Shown: one piece after another, positions 6,997-49,050 of the stretch
Layout of the letters: each line of letters opens with the position of its first letter
Position numbering within the stretch: position 1 is the stretch's first letter
Origin: a virus
Lineage: Duplodnaviria > Heunggongvirae > Uroviricota > Caudoviricetes
IMG/VR virus record: IMGVR_UViG_3300037067_014938
Span: 17,435 to 81,434 of that record
Length of the DNA stretch: 64,000 bases
Strand: one strand, 5' to 3'
The notes under the pieces: model-generated
The model's input: the letters and a program-made list of their open reading frames with translations, nothing else
Told to the model about the DNA's origin: nothing
The model's database searches: none
Translations under genes and position numbers: made by a program

Positions 6997-6998
6997 TT

Positions 6999-7021
6999 TA
7001 GGGGGGATTTTCCCCCCTAAT
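6999..7021 (+). terminator. Rho-independent terminator hairpin
   Basis: Perfect inverted repeat AGGGGGG-ATTTT-CCCCCCT directly after the stop of the 6463..6996 gene. Confidence 0.6.
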
Positions 7022-11483: not shown

Positions 11484-11556
11484 AGCTCTCGGCAGGAATC
11501 GAACCCGCGACCAATTGCTTACAGGGCAATTGCTCTACCAACTGAGCTACGAGAGC
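11484..11556 (-). tRNA. tRNA-Thr (anticodon UGU), anticodon loop CCTGTAA with C at position 33
   Basis: Cloverleaf folded by hand: acceptor GCTCTCG/CGAGAGC, D-arm GCTCAGTTGGTAGAGC, anticodon stem ATTGC/GCAAT, T-arm GCGGG-TTCGATT-CCTGC. No CCA is encoded. Confidence 0.6.
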
Positions 11557-17582: not shown

Positions 17583-17654
17583 TGGTCTTGCAGGGAATTG
17601 AACCCTGATTTTCGGGTTGAAAACCCAATATCCTATCCATTAGATGACAAGACC
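17583..17654 (-). tRNA. tRNA-Glu (anticodon UUC)
   Basis: Acceptor GGTCTTG/CAAGACC, D-arm ATCT-AATGGATA-GGAT, anticodon stem TTGGG/CCCGA with loop TTTTCAA, T-arm CAGGG-TTCAATT-CCCTG. Confidence 0.7.
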
Positions 17655-18210
17655 CTGTTTTTGGAATCGCTGGGCCGGTGCCCCATAACTCTCCGGCATC
17701 CTTACGATGGGTACGTTATACGATATTTGCAAATAGCGTCCAAGCGATCCCACTTAGACATCATCTTCTTTTTTATCAAAGTTTGATACGCAAATTAAAT
17801 ATATAAAACCAAATATACATATTAATGAAAAAGAAATAATGAACAAAGTTAATAAGCCAAAAATAATGGCTAAAATCCATAAAATAATAGAAATAGTTAT
17901 TAGCCATTCAAAATAATTATAAACTGAATCGAATATTTTACCCATTTAATCACTCTGGTTCCTTAAATCCGGGTCGTTTATACAATACTTTAAATCCAGC
18001 TGCTTTATATAGATCTATTGTCGTTTTTGCTTTGTCAAAATCTTTTTCTTTCATAGTCAGCCATTCAGCAGCACAAGGACTTCTCATTCCTTCTTTTTTA
18101 CACTCTGGGCATAAGTTGTTCCAAGATACATTCTTCTGCATCTTTTTCTGAATCACAGATGAAGACTTTATAAGAATCACTTGGAAGACAAACAGCAACC
18201 CATTTATCCA

Positions 18211-18483
18211 TTATACACGACCTATGGAGGGGTTGGCCCCTCCAATCTCAAAATTAGGTGCAAAAATTCTTCTATCTGCCACATAAGTCCATTCAGTATC
18301 AGTGCTCTCTCTAACTATTAAAGCCCCAAGTTCTATTAGTCGTAAACAAATCTCTGCTCTTAAAGTTCTAATTTTTTTAGAACCTGCATATAAAGTAAAA
18401 TCATCCGCCTGTCTCCGAATAACCATATTTGTTTTCTGCAAAGAATTTAATAAATTTCTTTCTTCCTTACTTAAGTCTAACAT
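18211..18483 (-). CDS. Small protein with C-terminal GGANPSIGRV motif (member of the minus-strand paralog cluster)
   Basis: Carries the GxxSPS-type motif encoded by the recurring GGTTGGCCCCTCCAAT DNA element. Confidence 0.4.
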   Translation of the reverse strand: MLDLSKEERNLLNSLQKTNMVIRRQADDFTLYAGSKKIRTLRAEICLRLIELGALIVRESTDTEWTYVADRRIFAPNFEIGGANPSIGRV

Positions 18484-18714
18484 TTAGTCCTCCTCATCCC
18501 TGTATCCAAAGCTTTCATCTGTGATAGAATCAAATATTTTATTAAATAATTCCGGATGACCCGCTCTGGTAACTAAACAATTTACAAACATTTCATACCT
18601 GCGTCTGAGTATAGTCATACAATTTGAACTACAGAAGTCATATTCTGAATAACCATCACCGCCACAGCTTGAACAATGAGGGAATTGTTTACCACAAACT
18701 CTACATTTTGGCAC
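18484..18714 (-). CDS. Small zinc-ribbon protein
   Basis: CRVCGK...CSSCGG...CSSNC arrangement. Confidence 0.4.
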   Translation of the reverse strand: MPKCRVCGKQFPHCSSCGGDGYSEYDFCSSNCMTILRRRYEMFVNCLVTRAGHPELFNKIFDSITDESFGYRDEED

Positions 18715-19066
18715 TATAATCTCCTGCCATAATATAAAGCATTAATGTAATCATTGCTAACTGTTTAGTTAATTTCCTATTAAAATATTTTCGGATATTT
18801 ATTATTTTAGGAACCCATGCTATAAAACGAACATGTCGGGGTACATCTAAACCTAAACCAAAATAACAAATTTTTTTACTTTTTCTTTCCATACAAAAGG
18901 CATAACCTTGAGAATAGGTAAATTGTGGATGTTCTGCATACCAGTAAACAACAAAAGAGTACTTATTCTGAAATTCCACAATGGGAAACTCAAACTCCTT
19001 ATCTGCCCAAGTTTTCCACGGACCGGAAAGACGCACTATAACCGAATGCTTAGCCATAAAAACCAC
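18701..19066 (-). CDS. Hypothetical protein
   Basis: 121-aa ORF. Confidence 0.35.
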   Translation of the reverse strand: MVFMAKHSVIVRLSGPWKTWADKEFEFPIVEFQNKYSFVVYWYAEHPQFTYSQGYAFCMERKSKKICYFGLGLDVPRHVRFIAWVPKIINIRKYFNRKLTKQLAMITLMLYIMAGDYSAKM

Positions 19067-19099
19067 AACAGAAATTTTCCAAAAAGGTTCCCAATTTCT

Positions 19100-19387
19100 T
19101 CAATTTTTGTTAAGTAACCTCAAAATAAATGCCACCTGGGTCAACTTTCTCAAAAGAGGTTCCGATGAATCAATATAGCATCGAATAAACTCATCAATTT
19201 TAAAGTCATGATACCAAACAATTCCTTGATTAGACCTTACAATAAGAGAACAATAATCCGTAGTTAATTTCCAACTAAATGAATAGTCCGTTGAATGAGA
19301 TATTTCCTGCGTAATATCAATATTGTCCTTATCAACTATTATTTTCATTGTAGGGACTGGCCCCTCACACACTGTAAAAGGATACAA
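19100..19387 (-). CDS. Small paralog-family protein (C-terminus AFILRLLNKN)
   Basis: Belongs to the tandem small-ORF array. Confidence 0.4.
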   Translation of the reverse strand: MYPFTVCEGPVPTMKIIVDKDNIDITQEISHSTDYSFSWKLTTDYCSLIVRSNQGIVWYHDFKIDEFIRCYIDSSEPLLRKLTQVAFILRLLNKN

Positions 19388-19647
19388 ATCAACACACCTT
19401 TGGAGAATGCATCAAAAGTATTAAAAAAATCCCTCATATCCCGGATATTAAAAAAAGTTTTTCTTATTAATGTTCCTACTCTATAAATAGACAATATTGC
19501 CATATTTGTTTCTGGATAATAGACTATCTTATCCGATGGGGAATAATCTTCAAACGGCCCATCAGTTGGGCGGATGTCAATATACTTATGGGAGGGCTGG
19601 CCCTTCCAATCTTGCCCTTGTGTCGTAACTAGTATTGCAATTCCCAC
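19345..19647 (-). CDS. Small paralog-family protein (WKGQPS motif)
   Basis: Contains QGQDWKGQPSH encoded by the GGGCTGGCCCTTCCAAT element. Confidence 0.4.
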   Translation of the reverse strand: MGIAILVTTQGQDWKGQPSHKYIDIRPTDGPFEDYSPSDKIVYYPETNMAILSIYRVGTLIRKTFFNIRDMRDFFNTFDAFSKGVLICILLQCVRGQSLQ

Positions 19648-19839
19648 TTAACCCCTCCCACTCAGTATACAAAGAAATATTTTAACTAAAATCATATCAA
19701 TAGCCCACCTAGCGTCTTCATGTTTATTTAAATAATCCATATATAATTTGAGATCATACTCATATCTAACCCACGAGGCATTTCCTTCTTTATCGTAAAT
19801 TATTATATCATCATTTTCCACCACTATTTCTATTTGCAT
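19648..19839 (-). CDS. Small paralog-family protein (C-terminus ILVKIFLCILSGRG)
   Basis: N-terminus MQIEIVV and a C-terminal hydrophobic ILxxR-type tail. Confidence 0.4.
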   Translation of the reverse strand: MQIEIVVENDDIIIYDKEGNASWVRYEYDLKLYMDYLNKHEDARWAIDMILVKIFLCILSGRG

Positions 19840-20099
19840 AGTGCCCTCATCAGAATATAGATTATAAACTGATCAAAATAATTATCATGTTTCGCGGAAT
19901 AAAGTAATTCTTTCATTGATTTAGGCCATAATGGTTTAGCTCTTTTAGTATATAAACATACTCTATCTTTTTTTGGATAATATGTCAAATAACAAGGAGT
20001 TCGACCATATCCATATTTTATGAAAGGGCTGACCCTTCCAAAAGAAATCTCATTTTTAATAATATTAATATGGCTATTTTTTGTTTCTATTGTAATCAT
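19830..20099 (-). CDS. Small paralog-family protein (FGRVSPF motif)
   Basis: N-terminus MITIETK. Contains the GRVSPF motif. Confidence 0.4.
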   Translation of the reverse strand: MITIETKNSHINIIKNEISFGRVSPFIKYGYGRTPCYLTYYPKKDRVCLYTKRAKPLWPKSMKELLYSAKHDNYFDQFIIYILMRALCK

Positions 20100-20310
20100 C
20101 TCTATTCGCCAGTATCAATAATAAGGTTCTAAAAATCGAAGCTTTATTGAAGGAACTGACCCTTCCATAAAGTAACCTTATATGCTCTTTATTAATAAAA
20201 GTATAACTTGCATGATATGCAATATCAACCCTTTGATCATGTACTTCTATATTTAAGGAGGGGGACCACCATTGTACAGTTGTTGCTGTTACACTTGTAT
20301 TATTTGTCAT
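20074..20310 (-). CDS. Small paralog-family protein (C-terminus TLLLILANRDD)
   Basis: Contains the C-terminal LLxILAxR motif plus WWSPSL and YGRVSSF motifs. Confidence 0.45.
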   Translation of the reverse strand: MTNNTSVTATTVQWWSPSLNIEVHDQRVDIAYHASYTFINKEHIRLLYGRVSSFNKASIFRTLLLILANRDDYNRNKK

Positions 20311-20552
20311 TCCGTTCTATCCGCTAAAATCTCTAATAAAGTTATAATAACTCCAGCCGAGTTTTTATTTCTGTAATTCAGCCGACTGCGACCATACAAA
20401 TATTCTATATACACATTGTCATGGTTTACGTTTATTATTAATTCCCTGCTGTACCCATAGACACCATAGGTATCGGTATCAGTACCTATGGAGGTACTCA
20501 TTGTTCCAAATGCCGGGCAGCGAGTATTTGTAACAAAGTGTTTATTAACCAT
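20307..20552 (-). CDS. Small paralog-family protein (C-terminus ITLLEILADRTE)
   Basis: C-terminal LLxILAxR motif. Confidence 0.45.
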   Translation of the reverse strand: MVNKHFVTNTRCPAFGTMSTSIGTDTDTYGVYGYSRELIINVNHDNVYIEYLYGRSRLNYRNKNSAGVIITLLEILADRTE

Positions 20553-20683
20553 ACTTTTGGGTATAACTCCTTTGGAAAGGGTGAACCATACAAAAAATGT
20601 ATCCCTCTATCAACAATCTCTATGGAAGGGCCAGTATTAATTCGTAATTGCTGAATTATTCTTTTTCTTCGTAAATTTTTCAA
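20498..20683 (-). CDS. Small paralog-family protein (C-terminus TLLQILAARHLEQ)
   Basis: C-terminal LLxILAxR motif and YGSPFP motif. Confidence 0.45.
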   Translation of the reverse strand: MKNLRRKRIIQQLRINTGPSIEIVDRGIHFLYGSPFPKELYPKVWLINTLLQILAARHLEQ

Positions 20684-20924
20684 TTAACTTCCTGATTTCC
20701 CAAAATCTTATTAGTTTTTATTTTCATGGCACACTTGCATAATTAAAATCTAGCAACAAATGGTGGGGCTGGAGAATATTTCCAGGAGTCCAACCATAAA
20801 CGCCGCATACTTTTGGGAACTTCCTTCACGCAATAAGATAAATCTATTGAACATTGCGTTATGGAATTTATTTCTTTAATAATTAATCTGGCGGAGGAGC
20901 CAGAATCTTTTAATACTAACTTAA

Positions 20925-21332
20925 TCATACTCCTCCAAGATTATTAGTAATAATCGCACAATATATCCCATAAAATGGGTTATCAAACCCTAATGCATAA
21001 TGTTCATGAATCTGAATCATACTGGCCCACCCAATGGACGGGCTGGCCCGTCCAATATCCGTAAAACAAACAAATATGGAATAATTGACATAATATTTCG
21101 TATGCCTACAAAAATGCTTAAAAAACCCTTTTCCTCCACACGTAAACAGAGTATCCTCATAAACACCCGAAATTGCCTTAAAGGTTATTTTTTTGGTCTT
21201 TAACGAATATTGCAAAATATAACCAGTTTTATAACAACTATTCTCCTGATAATACGTCATTTGCTTAAGATCTAAATCAGTTTCTGTATTAATTCTGAAT
21301 ATAATCATTAATTTCTTTTTCCATTTTTTCAA
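20925..21332 (-). CDS. Paralog-family protein with duplicated DIGRASPSIGWAS motif
   Basis: Motif encoded by the doubled GGGCTGGCCCGTCCAAT element. Confidence 0.4.
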   Translation of the reverse strand: MKKWKKKLMIIFRINTETDLDLKQMTYYQENSCYKTGYILQYSLKTKKITFKAISGVYEDTLFTCGGKGFFKHFCRHTKYYVNYSIFVCFTDIGRASPSIGWASMIQIHEHYALGFDNPFYGIYCAIITNNLGGV

Positions 21333-21630
21333 TCACTACTTTTCTACGTCGAGTCATTATTATCAATCTACGTGAATACAGCATATTTCGTAAACTATTT
21401 GATGTATTAATAAATACACGTTTTAATTTCTTAAAAAAATTCATACATTGGGCGGCTGGCTCTTCCATTGGATGGGCCTGCCCACCCATAGCTATCACAA
21501 CACCAATTGGCCAATTTTGTTCCGCACCAAATAAAAAATAGTGAAAGTGGGAACAATTGTTAATAAAACCTACAGTTTTTAGGGTCAAGTGGGAAGAAAA
21601 AAGTATAGACCACGAAGCAATTTTAGCCAA
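21289..21630 (-). CDS. Paralog-family protein (GGQAHPMEEPAAQ motif)
   Basis: Contains the doubled GGCTGGCTCTTCCATTGGATGGGCCTGCCCACCC element. Confidence 0.35.
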   Translation of the reverse strand: MAKIASWSILFSSHLTLKTVGFINNCSHFHYFLFGAEQNWPIGVVIAMGGQAHPMEEPAAQCMNFFKKLKRVFINTSNSLRNMLYSRRLIIMTRRRKVVIEKMEKEINDYIQN

Positions 21631-21940
21631 AGTGGGAGGATCAGAAGGTAAAATGGAGATGACACTACAGGTTGTGGTTTATTGTCACGGTGAGTCATAC
21701 AGATAGTGGTCGTGCGGAGTCGGCTAAGTTGTTGTGGGACAGGAAGTTGGAGGGGCGAAAATGCAAGAAAGCTAACGCTATAGACCAAAGCCTTTGTTAA
21801 ATCATTGTCCTACAATAACATACGCCCCACTGTTCAGATGGTGGACACCTCATTGTACGGAAACTGAACAGTTTGATAATGGTCATTCTCACATAAAGTG
21901 AAGGTTTATATATTTGCTATAACCTGTTGCTATTCAATGA

Positions 21941-21966
21941 CTTATACGGCTCTCACACGCCCAAAA
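21941..21966. repeat. Direct repeat CTTATACGGCTCTCACACGCCCAAAA (copy 1) in a 1.1-kb ORF-free region
   Basis: An exact 26-bp copy is found at 22135..22160. A degenerate third copy (TATTCAATAGGTTATACGAT) lies at 22701..22720. Confidence 0.6.
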
Positions 21967-22134
21967 TAAGCTAAACTCCCATATAACCTTTTAACCTCTC
22001 TTATTATACTCATAATATAGTATATCAGAATAGAATGTGAAGGAGATAGTTATATTTATTTTATTTTTTTATACAGAAAGAAAGTCATTAAAGAAGCAGT
22101 TAATAAATTTATTATAACTTATTATGGTTCAAGC

Positions 22135-22160
22135 ACTTATACGGCTCTCACACGCCCAAA
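22135..22160. repeat. Direct repeat CTTATACGGCTCTCACACGCCCAAAA (copy 2)
   Basis: Identical to 21941..21966, with similar upstream context TATTCAATGA / TTCAAGCA. Confidence 0.6.
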
Positions 22161-22446
22161 AACAGATAAACCAATACGTCATATCCCTATATCACACAAT
22201 GACTTAAATATATAACCAATCAAGCCATAAACCAAAAAAGCAATTCAATTTCCATACTCCTGTTAGTTAGTCCTTCCTTATTAAAAGAGTATAATTTTAT
22301 CTCTTTTATACAGTATAAAAGCGGAATAGTCATATTAATACAGTTAATAAAGGCTAACTAACAATAGTATTCCAATTTACTTCTTTTATTTTGATTGTGG
22401 GTTGGCAAGTCCATAGTCGAGTTAATGACTATTCACTAACATCGGT

Positions 22447-22482
22447 CAAAACCGGATAAAAAAGGTCTTGTTTCCAGGTTGG
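22447..22482. repeat. Left flanking imperfect direct repeat of the GC-rich island (AAAAAAGGTCTTGTTTCC core)
   Basis: Similar to 24190..24225 (CGAAAACAGGACAAAAAAGGTCTTATTTCCGGTTAG). Both are followed by TATATAAG / TAATATAA boxes. Confidence 0.5.
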
Positions 22483-22939
22483 CCGATGCCATATATAAGG
22501 AGAGGATAGTACGATAATCGAATCGGCAAGGTTATATTCTTTTTTATCTTTTTGTTATACATAGACTTAAGCTATAACTAATCCAATGTATAGAGTAATA
22601 AAAGAAGCAAGTTAATATATATTTTACCTATTGTGCCATATAGACTTAAGTATTGATAGTGATAATCATACCTTTCAAGTTAAGAATTTTATTCTTTTGT
22701 TATTCAATAGGTTATACGATTTTTTGATCTTTTTAGTGTATGTCGGATTGAGATTTTGATTTTTCTTAATCCTATGTAGGGCAATGACTTATGGCAATTC
22801 AATCAACTATATGGATTCGATTATCTATGATTAACTTGTTGATTGACAATAGGTTACGAAGGCTTGACATTTCGTTCCGACCTGCCGTTCTTGTTGATGT
22901 CGGCGGGACGGTTCCGCCAAAAGGAAAAACGGCTTATAC

Positions 22940-24141: not shown

Positions 24142-24151
24142 CCGATTTTAG

Positions 24152-24180
24152 GCCGCCAACTAATTCCGGTTGGCGGCCTA
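24152..24180 (+). terminator. Rho-independent terminator hairpin GGCCGCCAAC-TAATTCCG-GTTGGCGGCC
   Basis: Perfect 10-bp GC-rich stem followed by TACCTTTTGG. Confidence 0.6.
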
Positions 24181-28991: not shown

Positions 28992-29870
28992 ATGAACAGT
29001 TATCCTAAAGTATATGCTCTTGGGCATAGAGCAGTAACTGGCTTAAATGGTTCTCAAGTTATAATTGAAGAAAAGGTAGACGGAAGTCAATTCTCTTTTG
29101 GTCGTTATAATAATACTTTACGTGTAAAGTCTCATAATAAAGAAATGGTTCCTGATGCTCCAGAAAAAATGTTTAAAAAAGCCGTTGATTTTGTAGCAAC
29201 GCTGGATTTAATGAATGGTTGGACATATCGGGGGGAAGTTTTAGATAAACCTAAACACCATCTCTTAACTTACAGCCGAGTTCCAAATGGCAATGTAATT
29301 TTATTTGATATAAATGTTGCACCAGAAAATTATTTATCGTATAATGACAAAGATATAGAAGCAATACGACTTGGTTTAGAAATTGTGCCTCGATTATATG
29401 AGGGAATTTTTGCTTTTGATATTCCTTCTTTAATGGCTTTTCTTGAGAGAGAATCTATATTAGGTGGGACGAAAATTGAAGGAATTGTAATTAAAAATTA
29501 TAATTTATTTGGTCCGGATGGAAAACCCTTGATGGGAAAATTTGTATCTGAGAAATTCAAAGAAGATGCAAAAAAACAGTGGAAAAATAATAATCCAGGG
29601 GGGAAAGACGTAATTGATAATTTAATTCAGGTATTTAAAACCGAAATAAGATGGGAAAAAGCTATACTTCATCTTCGCGAAGAGGGTAAAGTAACTGACG
29701 ATCCGAAAGATATTGGTCTAATTATAAAAACAGTCATGCAAGATATTAAAGACGAATGTCGGGATGATATTGAGGGGATGTTATATTCTTGGGCGATAGA
29801 TAAAGTTCTTCGCGGATGTATAAGAGGGTTGCCTGAATGGTACAAGAAGAAATTGATAGAAAAACAATAA
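28992..29870 (+). CDS. ATP-dependent RNA ligase, Rnl2-like nucleotidyltransferase
   Basis: Motif I EEKVDGSQFSFG (KxDG), followed by RGEVL, ILFDI, EGIVIK and GKFVSEKFK, in the order of RNA/DNA ligase motifs I-V. Confidence 0.6.
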   Translation: MNSYPKVYALGHRAVTGLNGSQVIIEEKVDGSQFSFGRYNNTLRVKSHNKEMVPDAPEKMFKKAVDFVATLDLMNGWTYRGEVLDKPKHHLLTYSRVPNGNVILFDINVAPENYLSYNDKDIEAIRLGLEIVPRLYEGIFAFDIPSLMAFLERESILGGTKIEGIVIKNYNLFGPDGKPLMGKFVSEKFKEDAKKQWKNNNPGGKDVIDNLIQVFKTEIRWEKAILHLREEGKVTDDPKDIGLIIKTVMQDIKDECRDDIEGMLYSWAIDKVLRGCIRGLPEWYKKKLIEKQ

Positions 29871-33005: not shown

Positions 33006-33078
33006 GGGACTGTAGCTCAATTGGTAGAGCAATTGCCCTTTAAGCAATAGGTCGATGGTTCGACTCCATCCAGTATAC
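33006..33078 (+). tRNA. tRNA-Lys (anticodon UUU), loop CCTTTAA with C33; acceptor stem has mismatches
   Basis: D-arm GCTC-AATTGGTA-GAGC, anticodon stem ATTGC/GCAAT, T-arm GATGG-TTCGACT-CCATC. Acceptor GGGACTG/CAGTATA has 5 of 7 pairs. Confidence 0.5.
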
Positions 33079-33602
33079 ACGCAACCTATCCTCTTGTGAC
33101 TTAAAATTATTTATTATAACAGCACGAGAAGCTGCTCTTTTTTATAGATTCCCTGGTATAACAATTGGAAAACTATTACTCCTGATTTTGGCAGAAAAAT
33201 GAACGAAATTGGTCTGATATTTATAATCCTTTTTTTGATTACTTTGTATGTTAACTCCTTATATTTCGCGAGAAAAATAATACTGTGAAAAAGATTCAAA
33301 GAGAGAATGTAACAATTTACTGACTTACTCAAAGACGGCAAGTAGGTGTCAATGTGGTCGCCCTAATGTGGCTTACAATCAAAAATGCTTCTCATGTGGA
33401 AAAATTAATAATAATAGTTATATTGTGGGAAAAAGATGAACATGGATTTTATAGACTTTATTAGATTTACAGCTTGGGTATATGCCATACTGATACCACT
33501 ATGGGCTATAGCTGGATGTGCGGTCCAACATTTTGACGAACAAAGAGAACTTGCAACTGAACAAATAAAGAATCTGTGAGAAAGAAAACGCCGAAGAATT
33601 AA

Positions 33603-33675: not shown

Positions 33676-34097
33676 ATTACATTTCTTTTATTTCTGCTTG
33701 CTGTTGCATTTACTCTTGGTATGTGGGTGATAATACTCTTCCTTCCCATTGATAAAATACCCATACCTATAAACGCATATACAAAAATTGGGATATTCTG
33801 TATATTTATGTTTACAATAATTGGAATAGATGTCTCACTTTTTAGAATCACGAGAATGAACTTTAATGAAAGATGAATTAATTTTTATACTTATTACTTA
33901 TTGTATTCATATAAAATATGGTTTCACAACTAATATACATTATCATATAAAATGGTTACCCACTCATATTGAGGCATGTGATTTGTATGACTCATATATT
34001 TATAATACTCGTGCATTCCACAAAGAATTGTATAAGTTTAAAATGAAGCTATTGAGGAATGTTAGTTGATTTGCATGCAATCGGCTAATCAAAAAAT

Positions 34098-34171
34098 GGC
34101 CTCGTAACTCAGTTGGTTAGAGTACATGCCTTATAAGCATGAAGTCGTTGGTTCAAGTCCAACCGGGGCTA
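34098..34171 (+). tRNA. tRNA-Ile (anticodon UAU)
   Basis: Acceptor GGCCTCG/CGGGGCT, D-arm ACTC-AGTTGGTTA-GAGT, anticodon stem CATGC/GCATG with loop CTTATAA, T-arm GTTGG-TTCAAGT-CCAAC. Confidence 0.6.
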
Positions 34172-34175
34172 TTTT

Positions 34176-34436
34176 ATGATATATATTAGAATAGCACATA
34201 AAGCAGTTGATATTAGTGAAAATAAAGATTTTTGTGTTGATCTATATTGTCAAGATGATACAAAAACGTTATACGACATTGGTACAAAAGGTAGAATTAG
34301 TTGTGATATACCTCGTGTTATAAAATATGGCAATGAATTATTAGCTTCAAGAAAAACATTCTTTAATGAATTTCCAACTTTATATAGTGTTAAATTATTA
34401 CTTTTAATACTGGCAGAATTTCCTCTTATTCAATAA
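34176..34436 (+). CDS. Small paralog-family protein (C-terminus VKLLLLILAEFPLIQ)
   Basis: N-terminus MIYIRIA and the C-terminal LLxILAE motif. Confidence 0.45.
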   Translation: MIYIRIAHKAVDISENKDFCVDLYCQDDTKTLYDIGTKGRISCDIPRVIKYGNELLASRKTFFNEFPTLYSVKLLLLILAEFPLIQ

Positions 34437-34833
34437 TCGGAGCTTCAAATGAGAATGTTCTTATTACGATACTTTGATAATTTTATGCCTTGGGTAACTG
34501 CTGGAATATTCATAAATTATGGAAATGCTTTATGGAATAATTTTTCTTATTCTTTATTAGCCATTTGGTTTATTGCAATCGGAAGTGGATTACTTGGTTT
34601 TAGTCTAGCTATTATATTAATTTCAAATGATTTAAAGCTTGTTTACTTCATTTATAAAAAACAAAAAAAGTTACAAAAATGAAAATTCAAATCATTTTTA
34701 ATAATATAAGAATAACTGGAAACGAAGGGCCGGGTTGGGTAGAACTCCCTGGAAATATTGCTTTTGGCACATCTCTTAGTCAATATATAGAATATTTGAT
34801 GAGTTCACATCAGGAGGAAATTTTGCCTGCACA

Positions 34834-36153
34834 ATGTATAAAAGTTCTTTTATGGATATTAGGAGAAAAATAATGCCACATGTTTTATATAAGAATAATC
34901 CAACTGCCTATAGAAAAAGCAACCAAGTGTTCATTAATAAAGTACCTATTGCCTATATTTGGGCAGATTTTAACACCCTCGAACAATCGGCAAAGAATCA
35001 AATTTATGAAATGATAAAGCATCCCAGACTTTGGCCTCATTTAGCCATAATGCCTGATGTCCATGCGGGAATAGGTGCTACAATTGGTTCTGTAATTCCC
35101 TTACGTAATGCAATTATTCCATCTGCCGTTGGAACTGACATTGGTTGTGGAGTAATGGCTCTTAAAACAAATCTTACGGTAAACGAAGTAACTCCTAAAT
35201 TTAAAGAAATTCATATGGGGATTAAGAGAAGTATTCCGCTTGGATTTAATGATCGAAATATGAATCCAAGAAATCAAAAATTAATGAAAGAATTAGTTCC
35301 AGATGTTTTACACGCTCAGATTTTTGATTACGAGCAAAATAAGGAACTTTGGAATAGCCATAAGGGAATCGCTCCGCAAATGGGAACATTAGGTAGTGGA
35401 AATCATTTTATAGAGTTGTGCAAAGATAAAGATAATGTGGTATGGGCTGTTGTTCATTCCGGTTCTAGAAATATTGGTTATAAGATTGCAGAAAGATATA
35501 CTAAATTAGCAAAAGAAGAAGGTCATTCTTTTGGTGATTTGTCATATTTTGATGCTGACTCGGAAAGAGGCGAAGAATATTTAAAGCATATGCGATTTGC
35601 GGTGGATTTTGCTTATTATAATAGAAAATTTATGATTCATGAAATAACTTTAATGTTTAAGTCCTTATTTCCAAATCTCATAGGTCAGATAGAATTAAAT
35701 ATTCCGCATAATTTTGTAGCAGAAGAGTTTCATTATGGAGAATGGCTTTGGATTCATAGAAAAGGTGCTGTAAAAGTGCCTAATCTTTTAGTTCCACATT
35801 GGTTTACGAGAGGAATTATCCCAGGGTCAATGGGTTCTTCAACTTATATTGTAGAGGGTAGAGGAAATGAAGAGTCCTTTAATTCTTGCTCTCATGGTGC
35901 TGGTAGAGTTATGTCTCGTTCTATGGCCAAAGGGAAAGTCAATAGGAAAACAGGGGAGCAAAAAACCGAAGGTGTATTAAAACTGGAAGATTTTAAAGCA
36001 AAAATGGCAGGAATTTATTCTGAGGATATTGATTCGCAACATATAGATGAATCTCCAGATGCGTATAAGGATATAGATAAGGTAATGGAAAATCAGAAAG
36101 AATTAGTCGTAATTCTGGAAAAATTAGAACCTATATTTAATATTAAGGGATGA
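34834..36153 (+). CDS. rtcB: RtcB-family 3'-phosphate RNA ligase
   Basis: DIGCGVMA, GSGNHFIEL, HSGSRNIG, PHNFV and SCSHGAGR motifs in RtcB order. 439 aa. Confidence 0.8.
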   Translation: MYKSSFMDIRRKIMPHVLYKNNPTAYRKSNQVFINKVPIAYIWADFNTLEQSAKNQIYEMIKHPRLWPHLAIMPDVHAGIGATIGSVIPLRNAIIPSAVGTDIGCGVMALKTNLTVNEVTPKFKEIHMGIKRSIPLGFNDRNMNPRNQKLMKELVPDVLHAQIFDYEQNKELWNSHKGIAPQMGTLGSGNHFIELCKDKDNVVWAVVHSGSRNIGYKIAERYTKLAKEEGHSFGDLSYFDADSERGEEYLKHMRFAVDFAYYNRKFMIHEITLMFKSLFPNLIGQIELNIPHNFVAEEFHYGEWLWIHRKGAVKVPNLLVPHWFTRGIIPGSMGSSTYIVEGRGNEESFNSCSHGAGRVMSRSMAKGKVNRKTGEQKTEGVLKLEDFKAKMAGIYSEDIDSQHIDESPDAYKDIDKVMENQKELVVILEKLEPIFNIKG

Positions 36154-36799: not shown

Positions 36800-37133
36800 A
36801 ATCAAGAGTATTATTGATGAAATTGCTAAAAAAGCTGGTGAATCTATAAGAGCAGGAATGGCTTTGCCTCAAGATGAGTTTTATGAAGAAGAAGAAAAAC
36901 AATTAACCGAAGCAGTAAAACCATTTATAGAAGAAGCTTTTAATACCGGACGAAATATTACGGATTTATGTTCAGAAGTAACTGTTAGGGGTGGAGTAGC
37001 TTATGTAGAAAAAGTAGCCGTTGGAACTGAAGTTAAATTAACTGACTACGACGGGGAACAAATTGGAGAACCAACTGTTACATATGTGTATGGAAATAAA
37101 AATGATGAAGTAGTTTTATTGAGAGAAGAATGA
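36789..37133 (+). CDS. Hypothetical acidic protein
   Basis: 114-aa ORF overlapping its neighbours by a few nt. Confidence 0.4.
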   Translation: MSNEIKSIIDEIAKKAGESIRAGMALPQDEFYEEEEKQLTEAVKPFIEEAFNTGRNITDLCSEVTVRGGVAYVEKVAVGTEVKLTDYDGEQIGEPTVTYVYGNKNDEVVLLREE

Positions 37134-37310
37134 CTATTCAAGTTAAAAATGCCCATTTATATATGAGTGGGTTAGATCAATCTACGGAATATGTTATTCG
37201 TAATGAGGACCATTGTATCGGCGTAGCAAGGATAAATTATTCTTATGAAGTTACCATAGTTTATATATCAGCATTATTAATATTTATTTTGAGTAATAGA
37301 AAGGAAAAAA

Positions 37311-37571
37311 ATGTCATCATTTAATACTCCAGTTTATGTATCATGCTCTGTTTGTGGACCAAAATTATTCGTCTTTACTTCTAACGGAAAAAGAAAAATT
37401 AATTATACTTTTATGGCAACTGTAAAGGAATGGGATTTTGGAATTCCAGAATGTCCACATTGTAGAGGAACTAAAAATAATATAACTTTAATAGAACGTA
37501 ACAATAATGGTGTTATAACAAAAGAAATAGTTTCAACACCACGTTTAAAATTGGAGGCAATAGAATGTTAA
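37311..37571 (+). CDS. Zinc-ribbon protein
   Basis: CSVCGP...CPHCRG. Confidence 0.4.
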   Translation: MSSFNTPVYVSCSVCGPKLFVFTSNGKRKINYTFMATVKEWDFGIPECPHCRGTKNNITLIERNNNGVITKEIVSTPRLKLEAIEC

Positions 37572-37990: not shown

Positions 37991-38021
37991 CCCGTCCTTT
38001 TTAGGGGCCTTAACTGGCCCC
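37991..38021 (+). terminator. Hairpin TTTTT-AGGGGCC-TTAACT-GGCCCCT-AAAAA (possible bidirectional terminator)
   Basis: Perfect 7-bp GC stem flanked by T-run and A-run. Confidence 0.4.
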
Positions 38022-38030
38022 TAAAAATAT

Positions 38031-38219
38031 ATGCAAATTATTGTTTTATTTAATTCAATTAATATTATTGAAGATGGATTTTATGTTTCTTGTACTAAAT
38101 CAACCTGTAACTTATTAACAGAATTACCTTGGTACAAGGTACATTGGGATAGATTAAATTCAGAACGTATAACAGTAGTTAAAATTTTACTTTTGATATT
38201 AAGCGATCGAAATGATTAA
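38031..38219 (+). CDS. Small paralog-family protein (C-terminus VKILLLILSDRND)
   Basis: N-terminus MQIIVLF and the C-terminal motif. Its stop overlaps the next gene's start (ATGA). Confidence 0.45.
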   Translation: MQIIVLFNSINIIEDGFYVSCTKSTCNLLTELPWYKVHWDRLNSERITVVKILLLILSDRND

Positions 38220-39173: not shown

Positions 39174-39458
39174 ATGGGTGGTAATAAGAAATTATTGCCA
39201 CCCCCTATAAATATGCATCTTGAAGTTATAAAATATTATAGATTTCACAGTAAACTAGAAGCTAGTAAGTACTGTTTAGTAATAAGTACTCCTTTTTTAT
39301 GTTATAGTCGTGTAATATTTCATATTTTAACAGGAAATGGAAGAGAATCAAGTCCGAGTAGAAATCCTTTTAATTATATGCGGAAACGACCCAATGAGAA
39401 AGAACGTAATACTGTTTCTATAATAGCTTGTTTACTTTTTGTGTTGGCAGAGAGATAA
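39174..39458 (+). CDS. Small paralog-family protein (C-terminus IIACLLFVLAER)
   Basis: C-terminal motif. Confidence 0.4.
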   Translation: MGGNKKLLPPPINMHLEVIKYYRFHSKLEASKYCLVISTPFLCYSRVIFHILTGNGRESSPSRNPFNYMRKRPNEKERNTVSIIACLLFVLAER

Positions 39459-39653: not shown

Positions 39654-39935
39654 ATGGTACTTTCATTTGAGGAAAAGATGTTAGTAGTATATCATGAAGT
39701 ACCAGGATGTTTTACCGTAGATGACCGGTTAGTTTTTGATACTAATATAGGTAATAGGTGTGACCATAAAATACCTCTGGGTAAAATGCTTTCTCCAATA
39801 GAATATCTTCACAAGTTTAAGACAAGTTACCCAAGAGATTTTATATGTGTAAAAGCAATACTTTTATTTATTTTATATAATCGGCGTGTAGCTCAGTTGG
39901 TTCAGAGCACTCGGCCTGGGACCGAGAGGTCGTAA
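39654..39935 (+). CDS. Small paralog-family protein (C-terminus AILLFILYNRR); runs into tRNA-Pro
   Basis: C-terminal motif is immediately followed by the tRNA-Pro 5' end. The ORF tail past the motif is probably not real coding. Confidence 0.4.
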   Translation: MVLSFEEKMLVVYHEVPGCFTVDDRLVFDTNIGNRCDHKIPLGKMLSPIEYLHKFKTSYPRDFICVKAILLFILYNRRVAQLVQSTRPGTERS

Positions 39936-39956
39936 GTTCGAATCTTACCACGCCGA
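39882..39956 (+). tRNA. tRNA-Pro (anticodon UGG), loop CCTGGGA with C33
   Basis: Acceptor CGGCGTG/CACGCCG, D-arm GCTC-AGTTGGTTCA-GAGC, anticodon stem CTCGG/CCGAG, T-arm GTAAG-TTCGAAT-CTTAC. Confidence 0.65.
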
Positions 39957-39957
39957 T

Positions 39958-40176
39958 ATGAGAATAACAATTTATACACGTTTATTAGAAATAAATTTAG
40001 ATGGTCAACTTGTATTTTATATTCCAACTGGAAATGGAACAGAATTAAATGATAGTTGTAATCCAATAAATTTTCTTAGGGCATCTTCTGAATGTTCAGG
40101 AGAGCACATTTCAAGAGCAATTGTAGCATTCTTATTGTTTCTTTTAGCAGAGGATGATTATGTTGGGAAAAAATAA
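39958..40176 (+). CDS. Small paralog-family protein (C-terminus AIVAFLLFLLAEDDYVGKK)
   Basis: N-terminus MRITIY and the C-terminal motif. Confidence 0.45.
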   Translation: MRITIYTRLLEINLDGQLVFYIPTGNGTELNDSCNPINFLRASSECSGEHISRAIVAFLLFLLAEDDYVGKK

Positions 40177-44093: not shown

Positions 44094-45383
44094 ATGAGCT
44101 TTTTAAGAAACCTTTTTAGTAATAAATTCTACAAAGGTTTAACTGAGTTAAGCTCCAAATACCCCTTTTATGGTGCATTGGCCTCACAATGCACCATAGA
44201 ATCAAATGAGCAAATAAAAACAATCTCTGTACAAGAAAAAGAAGGAGAAATAACAATAACTTATTGTTTGAGTTGGTTTGAAAAACTAACTCCTGAACAA
44301 GCAAGTGAAACCATCCGTCATTCTCTTACCCATATACTATTTAATCACTTGGAAATAGCCAATGAAAAAGAGAATGAAAATGTGCGTCTTGAAGTAGCAA
44401 AAGATTTGGCTGTAAATTCTTACATGCAAAAGAATTTACTTCCTCAAGGATTTCTTACTCCAGATGCATTTGGATGGCCAACAGGGCTTTCTACACAAGA
44501 ATATTACCATTTACTTCAAAAAATAAAATTTGGGCAGGATAAAGATAAGGGGAAAGAACAAGGACAGGGTGGAGGGCAAGGACAAGGGCAAGGTGAAAGA
44601 CAGGGCGAAGAACAAGGTGAAGGACAAGGGCAAGGTGAAGGACAGGGCGAAGGACAACAAGGTGATAAACCAGGAGATAACCATGGAAAAATGAGCCGAA
44701 AAAGCTCTCAAGCGGCCATGCAACAAAAAATAAGTGGTATGACTCAACGAGCGGTTCAAAAAGGTGGTAGAACAGGTTCTCCTTCCGGGTCTTTAATGGA
44801 TAAGTTATTTGAATTTCTTTTGGGAACTGGAGAGTTACCTTGGAATATTATTTTAAGAAGATTTGTAGCTAATTCAGCTAAAGCTTTAAGAGAACCAACA
44901 TGGAAACGCCCTAACAGAAGATTTGGGGAATTCCAGAAAGGCAATAAGAAAAAACCTATATTAAGAATTTTCTTAGCTGTTGATGAATCTGGTTCCGTTG
45001 GAGATAGAGAATGGAAAACCTTTTTAGATGAAATAGAAGGAATTCTATTGTCTAAAAAAGGAGAATTAATTGTATGCAAGTTTACCACAAAAGTAGAAGA
45101 TACCTTTATATATGATAAGAGATCAAGTTCTAAAATACGTGTGATGCAACGGTATAATGGAGGAACTTTATTTCAACCATTTCTCGATGAGGCAAAAAAA
45201 CATCGTGTTGACTGCGTAATTTGTTTTACTGATGGTTATAACGCCGACGATAATAATATCTCTTATCCTAATTGGGACAGAGTATTATGGGTATTAACAC
45301 CAAATCACAATAAACCAACTGTTGGAAAATCTATTATTTTAACAGACTTAAGTAAAGAAATGAATAATACGATGCAAATATGA
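44094..45383 (+). CDS. VWA-domain protein (DUF2201-like partner of MoxR) with N-terminal metallopeptidase-like domain and Gly/Gln/Glu-rich linker
   Basis: MIDAS motif FLAVDESGSVGD. N-terminal IRHSLTHILFNH is an HExxH-like motif lacking the Glu. Low-complexity linker GKEQGQGGGQGQGQGERQGEEQGEGQGQGEGQGEGQQ. Confidence 0.7.
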   Translation: MSFLRNLFSNKFYKGLTELSSKYPFYGALASQCTIESNEQIKTISVQEKEGEITITYCLSWFEKLTPEQASETIRHSLTHILFNHLEIANEKENENVRLEVAKDLAVNSYMQKNLLPQGFLTPDAFGWPTGLSTQEYYHLLQKIKFGQDKDKGKEQGQGGGQGQGQGERQGEEQGEGQGQGEGQGEGQQGDKPGDNHGKMSRKSSQAAMQQKISGMTQRAVQKGGRTGSPSGSLMDKLFEFLLGTGELPWNIILRRFVANSAKALREPTWKRPNRRFGEFQKGNKKKPILRIFLAVDESGSVGDREWKTFLDEIEGILLSKKGELIVCKFTTKVEDTFIYDKRSSSKIRVMQRYNGGTLFQPFLDEAKKHRVDCVICFTDGYNADDNNISYPNWDRVLWVLTPNHNKPTVGKSIILTDLSKEMNNTMQI

Positions 45384-45539
45384 AAATTTAGTATATATTT
45401 CAGGAAAGCATTATAGTGGTTGTCCTGTAAAAGAACTTAAAACTTTAATACAAGAAAGATATCCTGATATATATGTAGATGATGATATGGCATATTTTGT
45501 GTGTTTATTATTAGCTATTTTAGGAGAAAGAAAAAAATG
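45364..45539 (+). CDS. Small paralog-family protein (C-terminus MAYFVCLLLAILGERKK); no canonical ATG near the frame start
   Basis: Read by hand. The frame is open from 45364. The C-terminal motif overlaps the RBS/start of the next gene. Confidence 0.3.
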
Positions 45540-45878
45540 AAAATGTTTTATCAGACAGGACAAAAAGTTGAAGATGGTGATCTAACGCGAGTAAAAACTA
45601 TACACAATGTCTTCAATTTACTTTTAGTTAAAGTAATAGATGGAAAATATTTTGTTCATATCCTTTGTGAAAAAGAACTTCTTCCATTAGAAACCTCACC
45701 ATATTTTTCTCCCATTAAAGAAGGTTTTGCAAAGTTAGTTAATATACGGTTGATTTTCAGAAAACAGGAATTAAATATACTGGCTACGACACAAGTGGAG
45801 TTAATTAAAGAAAGGCTTAGTAAACAATTCAGACTTGAACCATCAAAAGAAATATTGAATAAATGGCACAATTCATAA
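45535..45878 (+). CDS. Hypothetical protein
   Basis: Starts at MKMFYQTGQ. Track ORF is 45501..45878. Confidence 0.4.
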
Positions 45879-47646: not shown

Positions 47647-47672
47647 AAGGGGGGAAAAATCCCCCCTTATCT
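47647..47672 (+). terminator. Rho-independent terminator GGGGGGA-AAA-TCCCCCC followed by a T-rich tract
   Basis: Perfect G/C hairpin of the same style as 6999..7021. Confidence 0.55.
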
Positions 47673-48023: not shown

Positions 48024-48599
48024 ATGGCACTTTATTACAAAGCATTAGAAAAAACCATTAGTAACGAGGGTAATTATTCAGACCACCCAAATGACAAAGG
48101 TGGAGAAACTTATAAAGGGATATCCAGAATCTTTAATCCAGATTGGGAAGGTTGGTCAATTGTTGATTCAGAAAAACATAATGCTAACTTCCCCGATTGT
48201 TTGCAGTTTGATGGAGACCTTGAAAGGATGGTTTCAGATTTTTATGAAACTAACTTCTGGGAACCTCTTCACGGAGAAGAAATTGAGGATCAGGATTTGG
48301 CCAATAAATTATTTGATATATCGGTAAATACTGGTTTAACCGATGGGATTGTTATTCTACAACACGCTTTAATGGCGTTAAATACAAACGGAGAATTATA
48401 TCCTGAGATTATAATGGCAGATGGAAAATTTGGACCTAAAACCTTAGCCGCCATTAAGTCTCTTGAAATGAGACGTGAAACTCGATATTTAATCAAAGCA
48501 ATGGGTATTCTGCAAGGATACGGGTACATTATGAATGCTATGCATAATATAAATCAAACTGTTTTTATTCGCGGATGGCTTAATCGTATAAGTCTATGA
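48024..48599 (+). CDS. GH108-family lysozyme with C-terminal peptidoglycan-binding domain (endolysin candidate)
   Basis: N-terminal SNEGNYSDHPNDKGGETYKGI (GH108 EGGY...DxGG.T..GI motif) and C-terminal DGKFGPKTLAAIK (PG_binding_3-like). Confidence 0.65.
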   Translation: MALYYKALEKTISNEGNYSDHPNDKGGETYKGISRIFNPDWEGWSIVDSEKHNANFPDCLQFDGDLERMVSDFYETNFWEPLHGEEIEDQDLANKLFDISVNTGLTDGIVILQHALMALNTNGELYPEIIMADGKFGPKTLAAIKSLEMRRETRYLIKAMGILQGYGYIMNAMHNINQTVFIRGWLNRISL

Positions 48600-48811
48600 C
48601 AATAGGTATTAATAAAAATGGTGTACATTTATTTAATCCACATAGTAGGGGGTTTGATAGTAAAGGATTTATTGGATCACAATTTGATCTTCATAGATAT
48701 ATTTTTTATATTATAAATGAATCAATGGATGCAAAAAATGGAATGTGGTTTAGTCGATATAAAGAAATAGCAGTAACTAAAATATTATTATCTATTTTAG
48801 CAGCAAGATGA
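48596..48811 (+). CDS. Small paralog-family protein (C-terminus VTKILLSILAAR)
   Basis: C-terminal motif. Stop overlaps the next start (ATGA). Confidence 0.45.
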   Translation: MTIGINKNGVHLFNPHSRGFDSKGFIGSQFDLHRYIFYIINESMDAKNGMWFSRYKEIAVTKILLSILAAR

Positions 48812-49050
48812 AAATATTAATAGATCAAAATCAAATTATAATTAAAAACCCTCCTAACCTTTGTATTATAGAGGATGATAGATTTTTACAATCATTAAAT
48901 TTGTATATAAATTTTATAGGTTGTGGACCTTCTTCAATATTTAAAGATCACGAAGAATATCCAGTTGTTATTATAATTAAAATATTATTATTAATAATAG
49001 GACAAAGAAATGAAAAAATACTTCGCAGTAGGAAATCACAAATTAAGTAA
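48808..49050 (+). CDS. Small paralog-family protein (C-terminal region IKILLLIIGQRNEK)
   Basis: N-terminus MKILID and the C-terminal motif. Confidence 0.45.
   Translation: MKILIDQNQIIIKNPPNLCIIEDDRFLQSLNLYINFIGCGPSSIFKDHEEYPVVIIIKILLLIIGQRNEKILRSRKSQIK

Follow-up and report, generated by a model that had tools for sequence, protein, structure and literature searches.

A candidate palindromic insertion element of about 20 nt in the small-gene array of a tailed-phage-like genome

We analyzed a 64-kb stretch of viral DNA (IMG/VR record IMGVR_UViG_3300037067_014938; Caudoviricetes), hereafter referred to as the window, which is part of a 117-kb genome and to which all window-wide counts refer. 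In this AT-rich piece (GC content of ~33%) of a large tailed-phage-like genome, a minus-strand array of small genes (g1 to g13) carries repeated copies of a GC-rich 20-nt palindrome. We favor, with some reserve, the reading that this palindrome is a very small, dispensable, and recently expanded insertion element. A preliminary description of the same sequence had pointed out both the array and the element, and had suggested for the latter a DNA-level function superimposed on coding sequence. Its observations were partly confirmed and its interpretation was partly supported: the array exists, with 13 tightly packed or overlapping small open reading frames (ORFs) in 18211-21630, and the element is real, since its degenerate pattern matched five times at ≤2 mismatches (expectation, 0.01).

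On the minus (coding) strand, the element reads TGGA-N-GGG CCAG CCC-N'-TCCA, i.e., a hairpin of an 8-bp stem and a 4-nt loop that extends beyond the GGGC-TG-GCCC core noted previously. A covariance model built from seven copies and run unfiltered over the whole window returned seven strong copies of 28 to 38 bits, all of them within 18225-21488. No comparable match, whether to this model or to the motif as first proposed, was found elsewhere in the 64 kb, the next best (17 bits, 37994-38031) being an ordinary terminator. The array also holds four partial copies, two of them eroded and situated in g4, one reduced to a half, and one a degenerate tandem repeat. Among the "at least ten" sites originally listed, 20571 (right arm only) and 20633 (loop and right arm, in inverted orientation) proved to be partial copies, and 20256 only weakly resembles the element, the coding sequence at that site being conserved in a relative. 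The two sites described as doubled are indeed tandem doublets, in which c21040 is accompanied by a left arm plus loop and c21467 by a degenerate second copy. The array and the copies are listed below, where "tail family" denotes small proteins ending in LLxILAxR.

18211..21444, minus strand: array of 13 small overlapping or tightly packed genes, g1 to g13, hosting all copies.
18225..18244, minus strand: c18230, TGGAGGGG CCAA CCCCTCCA; 35.3 bits; perfect hairpin, -15.6 kcal/mol, z -3.3; encodes the C-terminal ...GGANPS... of g13, with the next ATG (18211) 13 nt downstream.
19349..19368, minus strand: c19354, GTGAGGGG CCAG TCCCTACA; 30.1 bits; weak hairpin with one bulged base, -6.9 kcal/mol; end of g9, abutting the g10 ATG (19348).
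19589..19608, minus strand: c19594, TGGAAGGG CCAG CCCTCCCA; 35.8 bits; N terminus of g9, second frame, WKGQPSH.
20021..20040, minus strand: c20026, TGGAAGGG TCAG CCCTTTCA; 36 bits; -10.3 kcal/mol, z -3.2; within g7 (FGRVSPF).
20148..20167, minus strand: c20150, TGGAAGGG TCAG TTCCTTCA; 27.9 bits; within g6 (GRVSSF), at the loop before the tail helix, which is a low-confidence loop in the structure model of the family.
21035..21054, minus strand: c21040, TGGACGGG CCAG CCCGTCCA; 37.6 bits; perfect hairpin, -14.8 kcal/mol, z -3.4; within g2 (GRASPSI).
21469..21488, minus strand: c21467, TGGGTGGG CAGG CCCATCCA; 32.4 bits on the minus and 25.9 on the plus strand; -13.1 kcal/mol; upstream of g1, probably noncoding, with a loop that reads better on the plus strand (CCTG).
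21022..21033, minus strand: half copy (left arm and loop, TGGGTGGGCCAG) in tandem with c21040, read from the sequence.
21448..21467, minus strand: TGGAAGAGCCAGCCGCCCAA, a degenerate second copy in tandem with c21467, with 3 nt between its end and the g1 ATG (21444).
20623..20634, minus strand: partial copy, loop CTGG plus right arm CCCTTCCA, with inverted loop, just before the tail-family domain of g4.
20573..20590, minus strand: decayed copy in g4, TATGG-TTCA-CCCTTTCCA, left arm missing; repeat-family match of 68%.

Perfect copies (c18230, c21040, and L149-795 from a related phage) fold at -13.5 to -15.6 kcal/mol, with z scores of ~-3.3. Five full and two partial copies lie 0 to 25 nt ahead of a start codon or of a tail-family domain that is now fused to an upstream ORF. 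Of the seven strong copies, five are located inside ORFs and translated, two of these constituting the 3′ end of an ORF that is closely followed by the next ATG. The half copy at 21022..21033 is followed by an in-frame ATG ATT CAG ATT (21020), which opens a 31-aa segment resembling the tail family. Identical copies were recovered from independent JGI, ENA, and Logan assemblies, which excludes assembly error, including the collapse of repeats considered in the preliminary description. The near-identical strains L145-L148 showed no variation in the copies.

Pairwise identity among copies was 72% within the 20 nt versus 29%, i.e., the composition background, in the immediate flanks. Stem positions were paired in 91% of the cells across copies, and the fifth stem pair varied between G:C (two copies), C:G (one), A:U (two), and U:A (one). 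Together with the copy specific to L149, the window copies are read in three frames, which yield GGANPSI/GRASPSI/GRVSPF/GRVSSF, WKGQPSH/RGQSLQ, and EGLTLPL (L149), respectively. The alignments thus indicate that conservation acts at the nucleic acid level and not at the protein level, because of the three frames, an intergenic copy in a relative, the sharp 20-nt edges, and the stem covariation; in this respect the earlier claim of DNA-level over codon-level conservation was borne out. The peptides that had been taken for variations of one motif come, instead, from different reading frames. A peptide motif G-R-x-S-P-S/F of a tandem-duplicated paralogous family would account for the four copies that share one frame (GGANPSI, GRASPSI, GRVSPF, and GRVSSF) and for the comparable position of the site in g4 to g7, after an I-x-F/L-Y strand. 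Nonetheless, the other copies lie in two further frames or are intergenic, the peptide is missing in the plus-strand family members and in the L153 and L141 orthologues, g13 and g9 fall outside the family, and the stem covariation would not be given by peptide constraint. This explanation is therefore extremely improbable, and the frame analysis refutes it as a sufficient one.

Related phages were compared as short metagenomic contigs, found via the neighboring and the array proteins:

L144, 95% identical DNA: hairpin kept at the g13 end as TGGGGGGG CTGG TTCCTCCA.
L141-143, ~78% identical: g13 ends FEIEE (stop), without hairpin; homology to the window stops at 18243.
L153, 70-79% identical, 9.3 kb: g13 ends FEIGE (stop), without hairpin; homology stops at 18240.
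L149, ~76% identical over 1.8 kb: covers g4 to g12.

At the g13 end, where the window reads ...FEIGGANPSIGRV (stop) with the hairpin of c18230, both points at which homology stops (18243 and 18240) coincide with the 5′ edge of this copy. The empty alleles are ATTGGAGAATAA (L153) and ATTGAGGAATAA (L141), and left-arm bases therefore overlap a pre-existing Shine-Dalgarno sequence. Between L144 and the window, 6 of the 20 element positions differ, as compared with 3 of ~72 flanking positions; the three stem changes in L144 all yield G.U pairs on the mRNA-sense strand, and the L144 loop appears inverted. L153 is syntenic with the window from the divergent plus-strand genes through the noncoding region, the array, and tRNA-Glu to a 526-aa gene. 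A covariance scan of this contig returned zero copies (best match, 11 bits), and the FGRVSPF segment is missing from its g7 orthologue. It follows that an array free of the element exists and is maintained.

In L149, c19594 corresponds to a clean 21-nt gap with well-aligned flanks, the c20150 and c20026 sites are remnants (9 and 12 nt shorter, respectively), and the partial copy at 20623..20634 has no counterpart. On the other side, L149 alone carries a perfect copy, a 21-nt insert (ATTGGAAGGGTTGACCCTTCC) in the g5 tail that turns TLLEILADR into TLLE-GLTLPLE-ILADR; this is a true insertion, because all other family members have an uninterrupted tail. Among the window copies, c19354 alone has been retained at its orthologous site in L149 (1790-1821), where it is intergenic, just before the g10 ATG, the upstream gene stopping 12 nt earlier than in the window. 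One of its stem pairs has changed from G:C to A:U, a compensatory change, and the loop-adjacent pair from G.U to G:C. This shared copy is the weakest hairpin (-6.9 and -5.7 kcal/mol in the window and L149, respectively), whereas the most stable hairpins are copies without an orthologue in the relatives, which is the age pattern expected of a decaying insert.

Loop orientation is mixed (CCAG/CCAA/TCAG versus CTGG/TTGA/CAGG). The bases directly 5′ and 3′ of the palindrome are identical in eight of nine copies (T..T in six and A..A in two) and never complementary; the exception is a copy with an internal indel, and our own binomial estimate of the chance of such agreement is ~1e-3. The empty/filled g5 pair fits the duplication of one T, a single base being too little to prove a staggered cut. 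Because of the precise 21-nt presence/absence, the copy-free L153, and the faster change of the element than of its flanks, we consider it dispensable rather than a constrained target, contrary to the conserved functional site within coding sequence that had been envisaged. According to the same alignments, the whole array is evolving very fast. The window and L149 arrays differ by many other indels of 5 to 30 nt, e.g., a nonpalindromic 21-nt one in the g6 N terminus (L149 868-890, among the gaps), and the g7 of L149 is divided, with its C-terminal part joined to g8. A distant relative, L008, whose neighboring protein is 30% identical, has no analogous hairpin family.

We propose that the element enters DNA as a 21-nt unit, made up of the palindrome and one duplicated flanking base. 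These 20 + 1 nt would equal seven codons with no stop in the frames used, so that ORFs would stay open whatever the insertion phase; each insertion would add seven residues, the identity of which would be set by that phase, and would be tolerated inside small nonessential genes. Copies would have been gained and lost, inverted, duplicated in tandem, and eroded within short evolutionary distances, in a recent local expansion within one fast-evolving small-gene array of one phage sublineage. New copies may be made by the recombination/replication machinery of the phage via copy choice or gene conversion, primed by short homology of the element end (ATTGGAG/TGGAG) with Shine-Dalgarno-like or TATGG sequences. 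Such priming by terminal microhomology would explain the many copies just upstream of start codons, and these start-proximal positions, along with the empty-site sequences, suggest insertion at Shine-Dalgarno-like TGGAG sequences. In support of this proposal, genes for RecA, RuvC, a RuvB-like protein, and a large SbcC/Rad50-like ATPase are present in the phage. Identical patches in diverged DNA could then serve as crossover points for neighboring cassettes, of which the g13 boundary would be an example. Transcribed copies would form RNA hairpins, for which a secondary role as mild attenuators or stabilizers is possible and not required.

Several observations weigh against an insertion element. 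No transposase, dedicated enzyme, or RAYT (the tyrosine transposase associated with repetitive extragenic palindromic sequences [REPs]) was found among the window ORFs of at least ~95 aa, so that movement is deduced only from presence/absence. A length of exactly 21 nt is seen in only two indels, the others measuring 9, 12, and 22 nt amid many unrelated small indels, and the polarity (insertion or deletion) is set for only two or three sites. Confinement to one 3.3-kb array is unusual for a freely mobile element and fits a region-specific function too. Moreover, the conservation of c19354 at the same site in two lineages, with its compensatory pair change, and the three stem substitutions of L144, all to G.U on the mRNA-sense strand, hint at selection on RNA structure. 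Finally, few metagenomic contigs underlie the comparison, and the element may be inconsequential to the phage.

A bolder version of this proposal is a "nano-MITE" (after miniature inverted-repeat transposable elements), which we put forward only as a tentative possibility. Two 8-bp inverted repeats and a 4-nt loop would be actively moving with a 1-bp duplication, mobilized in trans by a hairpin-recognizing phage or host enzyme or by template switching at the fork, drawn to Shine-Dalgarno-like TGGAG, and tuned by evolution to 21 nt, a length that would let them settle in coding sequence. If true, this would be the smallest mobile DNA described in a virus, and it would generate peptide insertions and cassette exchange in phage accessory genes.

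Some of the above features would also suit the main alternative, functional RNA stem-loops of a polycistronic early transcript, i.e., attenuators or terminators like the promoter-early stem-loops (PeSLs) of T4-type phages, exonuclease barriers, or occluders of ribosome-binding sites that couple translation. All copies sit in one co-oriented, tightly overlapping array beside a 1.3-kb noncoding region. Non-Watson-Crick stem positions on the mRNA-sense strand are mostly G.U (8 versus 2 A.C, by our count), the orthologous copy upstream of g10 was retained with a compensatory change, and five full and two partial copies are found within 25 nt of a start codon or domain start. In addition, the Rho-independent terminators of the phage itself (6998-7020, 37998-38027, and 47647-47668) have similar G-run/C-run stems and short loops, and the GGGG...CCCC stem-loops of PeSLs, with G-T pairs, act as terminators (PMC2839356). 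Copy turnover would, in that case, reflect positional flexibility and not selfishness. However, unlike the phage terminators, the array copies are not followed by a T-run, lie inside genes, and are polymorphic between relatives, and a terminator scan picked up none of them. Promoter-like sites were neither enriched (28 versus 25.8 expected) nor at a fixed distance from the hairpins. Furthermore, the syntenic L153 array has no copies, three of the four window copies in the well-aligned L149 stretch are absent or eroded there, the loop orientation is mixed, and the conserved copy is the least stable one. Taken with these points, a function at the RNA level appears unlikely. A frameshift or bypass signal was rejected, as the ORFs are open through the copies and no slippery sequence precedes them.

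Canonical-looking bidirectional terminators, with stems flanked by A- and T-runs, were found at 6998-7020, 24149-24180, 37998-38027, and 47647-47668. The one at 37998-38027 is located immediately upstream of a tail-family gene and is the best match to the hairpin model outside the array (17 bits).

The c18230 copy stands apart from the others in that it coincides with a homology breakpoint at the edge of a variable gene slot, whereas the remaining copies differ between relatives only by their own presence/absence. The slot has four different contents in four related phage types, one of them being empty:

17655..18210, minus strand: variable slot between the c18230 hairpin and tRNA-Glu (17583-17654).
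17655-18210, window: g14 and small membrane-like ORFs.
506-1257 of L141, representing L141-143: two 125-aa genes.
397-1578 of L144: 138-aa and 182-aa genes.
6661-6684 of L153: empty, with 23 nt from the stop codon to the tRNA.

The preliminary description had raised the idea that the palindromes are recombination sites. In its specific form, they would delimit exchangeable cassettes and serve as binding or cleavage sites for a specific recombinase or nuclease (attC-like or homing-endonuclease-type). This fits c18230 alone: the copy and the adjoining 17 nt are common to the window and L144 while the genes on the downstream side differ, and L141 and L153, which lack c18230, have other contents in the slot or none. 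By contrast, the other copies are simple 21-nt inserts within conserved genes, with unchanged neighbor content, and the opposite slot boundary is a tRNA gene and not a second palindrome. No integrase, HNH, or GIY-YIG gene was detected in the window. As to a protein that could bind the element, for which an HNH or zinc-finger protein had been suggested, g12 gave only a weak zinc-ribbon match (E=0.035) and is equally present in the hairpin-less L153, i.e., it does not correlate with the element. Dedicated recombination sites are thus very unlikely. A link of c18230 with recombination, as judged from the breakpoint, is plausible.

Downstream of c18230, the next gene (17950-18211, minus strand), which opens with MDKWVAVCLPSDSYK..., is closed by a stop after 37 codons, and a plausible zinc-finger-like sequence (...NLCPECKKEGMRSPCAAEW...) follows in a second frame. 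Possible causes of this split reading are a frameshift, a sequencing error, and an overlap of two genes.

Small GC-rich hairpins clustered in an early-looking small-gene array are also reminiscent of the N4-like single-strand hairpin promoters used by a virion RNA polymerase, or of mimics of host CRISPR repeats. N4 hairpin promoters have a 5- to 7-bp stem and a 3-nt loop, unlike the 8-bp stem and 4-nt loop of the element. The window encodes a sigma factor and no giant polymerase gene, its largest ORF being a 1,110-aa SbcC-like protein (SbcC/Rad50-like ATPase), and the hairpins are missing from the syntenic L153. A scan of 185,579 species genomes yielded at least 120 loci, those listed being scattered single matches, mostly in GC-rich genomes; there was no repeat array among these loci and no REP family among the matches listed. 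Either explanation is, accordingly, barely credible. In a scan of IMG/VR viral contigs with the degenerate motif, a collection that does not include the lineage of this phage, we found seven single chance-like matches and no contig with more copies. Three of the species-genome matches, in Solobacterium metagenome-assembled genomes (L060 1044-1075, also L065 and L072), correspond to one conserved bidirectional terminator, aaaaaaaTGGATGGGTCAGCCCATCCAttt, which lies between convergent genes as a single copy per genome. Its stem-loop is almost the same as that of the phage element, and we judged this to be a chance resemblance. An origin of the palindrome from a tRNA gene was rejected, with matches of ≤7 nt.

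Among known systems, the closest phage precedent for the stem-loop part of the element is the T4-type PeSL (Arbiol et al. 2010, PMC2839356; Comeau et al. 2014, PMC4122927). In both cases, repeated G-run/C-run stem-loops allow G-T pairs (here at -7 to -16 kcal/mol) and occur in hyperplastic regions rich in small orphan genes; the indel/replacement differences between close relatives with which PeSLs are associated have a counterpart here at c18230. PeSLs, which have been proposed as recombination linkers (PMC2839356, PMC4122927), are ~100-bp intergenic composites that carry a strong sigma-70 promoter and lie between a stop and the next Shine-Dalgarno/ATG. In contrast, the element described here is a 20-nt palindrome without an associated promoter, mostly located inside ORFs as a discrete 21-nt insert, and its phage is not T4-like (family A polymerase). 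The closest behavioral analogue is provided by the mobile GC clusters of yeast mitochondria (e.g., GC42; Wu and Hao 2015, PMC4478555). These are likewise GC-rich hairpin palindromes in an AT-rich genome, with presence/absence at homologous sites, stems better conserved than loops, and no known dedicated transposase; they duplicate a short target, for which the identical flanking bases may be a counterpart here (PMC4478555). They differ in being two to three times longer (30 to 60 nt), mostly intergenic, and mitochondrial, and in duplicating AG, whereas the unit here has 21 nt with one putatively duplicated base, is mostly coding, and occupies one phage array. GC clusters also form tandem arrays, and an in-frame insertion occurs in var1.

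Ogata and colleagues are said to have described, in 2000, Rickettsia palindromic elements that are inserted in frame in protein genes and translated as extra peptide segments. Such elements are ~100 to 150 bp long, genome-wide in the bacterium, and recognizable as a peptide in one frame. The 21-nt unit resembles them in keeping ORFs open, here in three phases, and differs in its size of 20 to 21 nt and in a peptide that changes with the frame. REPs are extragenic, carry a GTAG or CGTC tag, form inverted pairs (REPINs), and accompany a RAYT gene (PMC3116915, PMC3733652); in this phage, by contrast, the flanks are ATT/TAT, the copies are intragenic, and no transposase domain was found in the scanned window ORFs.

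If the reading as an insertion element is right, accessory-gene arrays can be colonized by inserts far below the size of classical mobile elements, with a frame-tuned length. This would offer a simple route to seven-residue insertions, fusion of neighboring genes, and seeding of crossovers, and would carry the PeSL concept of modular shuffling through repeats over to phages that are not T4-like. The host Lamassu/DdmABC defense can be triggered by hairpin-forming palindromes in phage DNA (PMC11707656), and palindromic inserts might therefore carry a cost or face selection by host immunity. On the practical side, a strongly conserved "motif" among small phage proteins may be inserted DNA rather than a functional peptide.

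The array genes run leftward, from 21444 down to 18211, beginning beside the 1.3-kb noncoding region. Their proteins are found in public gene calls, and orthologues exist in L149 and L153. PHROGs and Pfam searches with the array proteins gave nothing informative. According to a profile hidden Markov model (HMM), the tail family is represented as follows:

20498-20683, minus strand: g4, tail family (HMM).
20307-20552, minus strand: g5, tail family (HMM).
20074-20310, minus strand: g6, tail family (HMM).
19648-19839, minus strand: g8, tail family (HMM).
19100-19348, minus strand: g10, weak member (HMM).
19830-20099, minus strand: g7, weak member (HMM).
19648-20683, minus strand: family loci of the array.
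33044-33202, 34176-34436, 34679-34873, 37130-37324, and 38031-38219, plus strand: family loci.
39174-39458, 39946-40176, 45364-45540, 48596-48811, and 48808-49050, plus strand: further family loci.

The sharing of the LLxILAxR tail by the array genes, as previously asserted, thus holds for g4, g5, g6, and g8 and weakly for g10 and g7, or for about 5 of the 13 genes; the remaining array ORFs are unrelated to the family, with g13 and g9 being nonmembers. Over the window, the family profile gave ten strong and about six weak ORFs. The family comprises paralogues of 60 to 90 aa, at least 14 in the 64 kb, with an M-x-I-x-I strand pair at the N terminus and, at the C terminus, a hydrophobic helix that terminates in LLxILAxR. 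Codons of the tail vary freely at synonymous positions, on which account the tail is, by its codon usage, an independent protein-level motif, separate from the hairpin element. None of the plus-strand members, which are scattered, several of them directly after tRNA genes, contains the palindrome. A profile search of 1.84 billion representative proteins returned 14 matches. The 12 small ones, the sequences of which were read, are the phage's own members or orthologues in close relatives; the two long ones (380 and 2,353 aa) were judged spurious from their length and multistretch matches, without their sequences being read. The matches being confined to the phage and its close relatives, the family is lineage-restricted as far as this search reaches. 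The AlphaFold model of one member has three strands and two helices, with a predicted local distance difference test (pLDDT) of 70, and Foldseek comparison of this model with viral and PDB libraries gave no match below E = 0.3. Several family genes begin a few bases from the 3′ ends of tRNAs (Lys, Ile, and Pro; 33006-33202, 34097-34436, and 39881-40176), and tRNA genes may act as conserved linkers for gene exchange in this phage.

The noncoding region (21500-22790, 1.3 kb), part of which is conserved in L153, separates divergent gene arrays at the cumulative GC skew minimum. The two units of a 73-nt direct repeat within it (21904-21976 and 22099-22171, 79% identical) have the common core ACTTATACGGCTCTCACACGCCCAAAA. 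The region may represent an origin, the end of the genome, or a site of promoters.

Replication and recombination genes of the window encode a family A DNA polymerase, SSB, DnaB, a primase, RecA, RuvC, and a RuvB-like ATPase; ThyX, UDG, a ribonucleotide reductase, the sigma factor, RtcB, an RNA ligase, and 11 tRNAs are also encoded. A distant blastn search of the region against phage GenBank records and a search of the neighboring 206-aa protein against viral contigs gave no match, and an Rfam scan of the window matched only the 11 tRNAs. The RNA ligase, RtcB, and these tRNAs are grouped (28992-29870, 34834-36153, and the tRNA genes) in what resembles a tRNA repair or replacement module, a possible counter to host anticodon nucleases. 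The tRNA-Lys region (33006-33078) is 89% identical over 56 nt to the tRNA-Thr region (11484-11556), as found via L010 7490-7545. The Rfam match of tRNA-Lys spans model positions 4 to 67 only, and this gene may be a duplicated, diverged tRNA gene.

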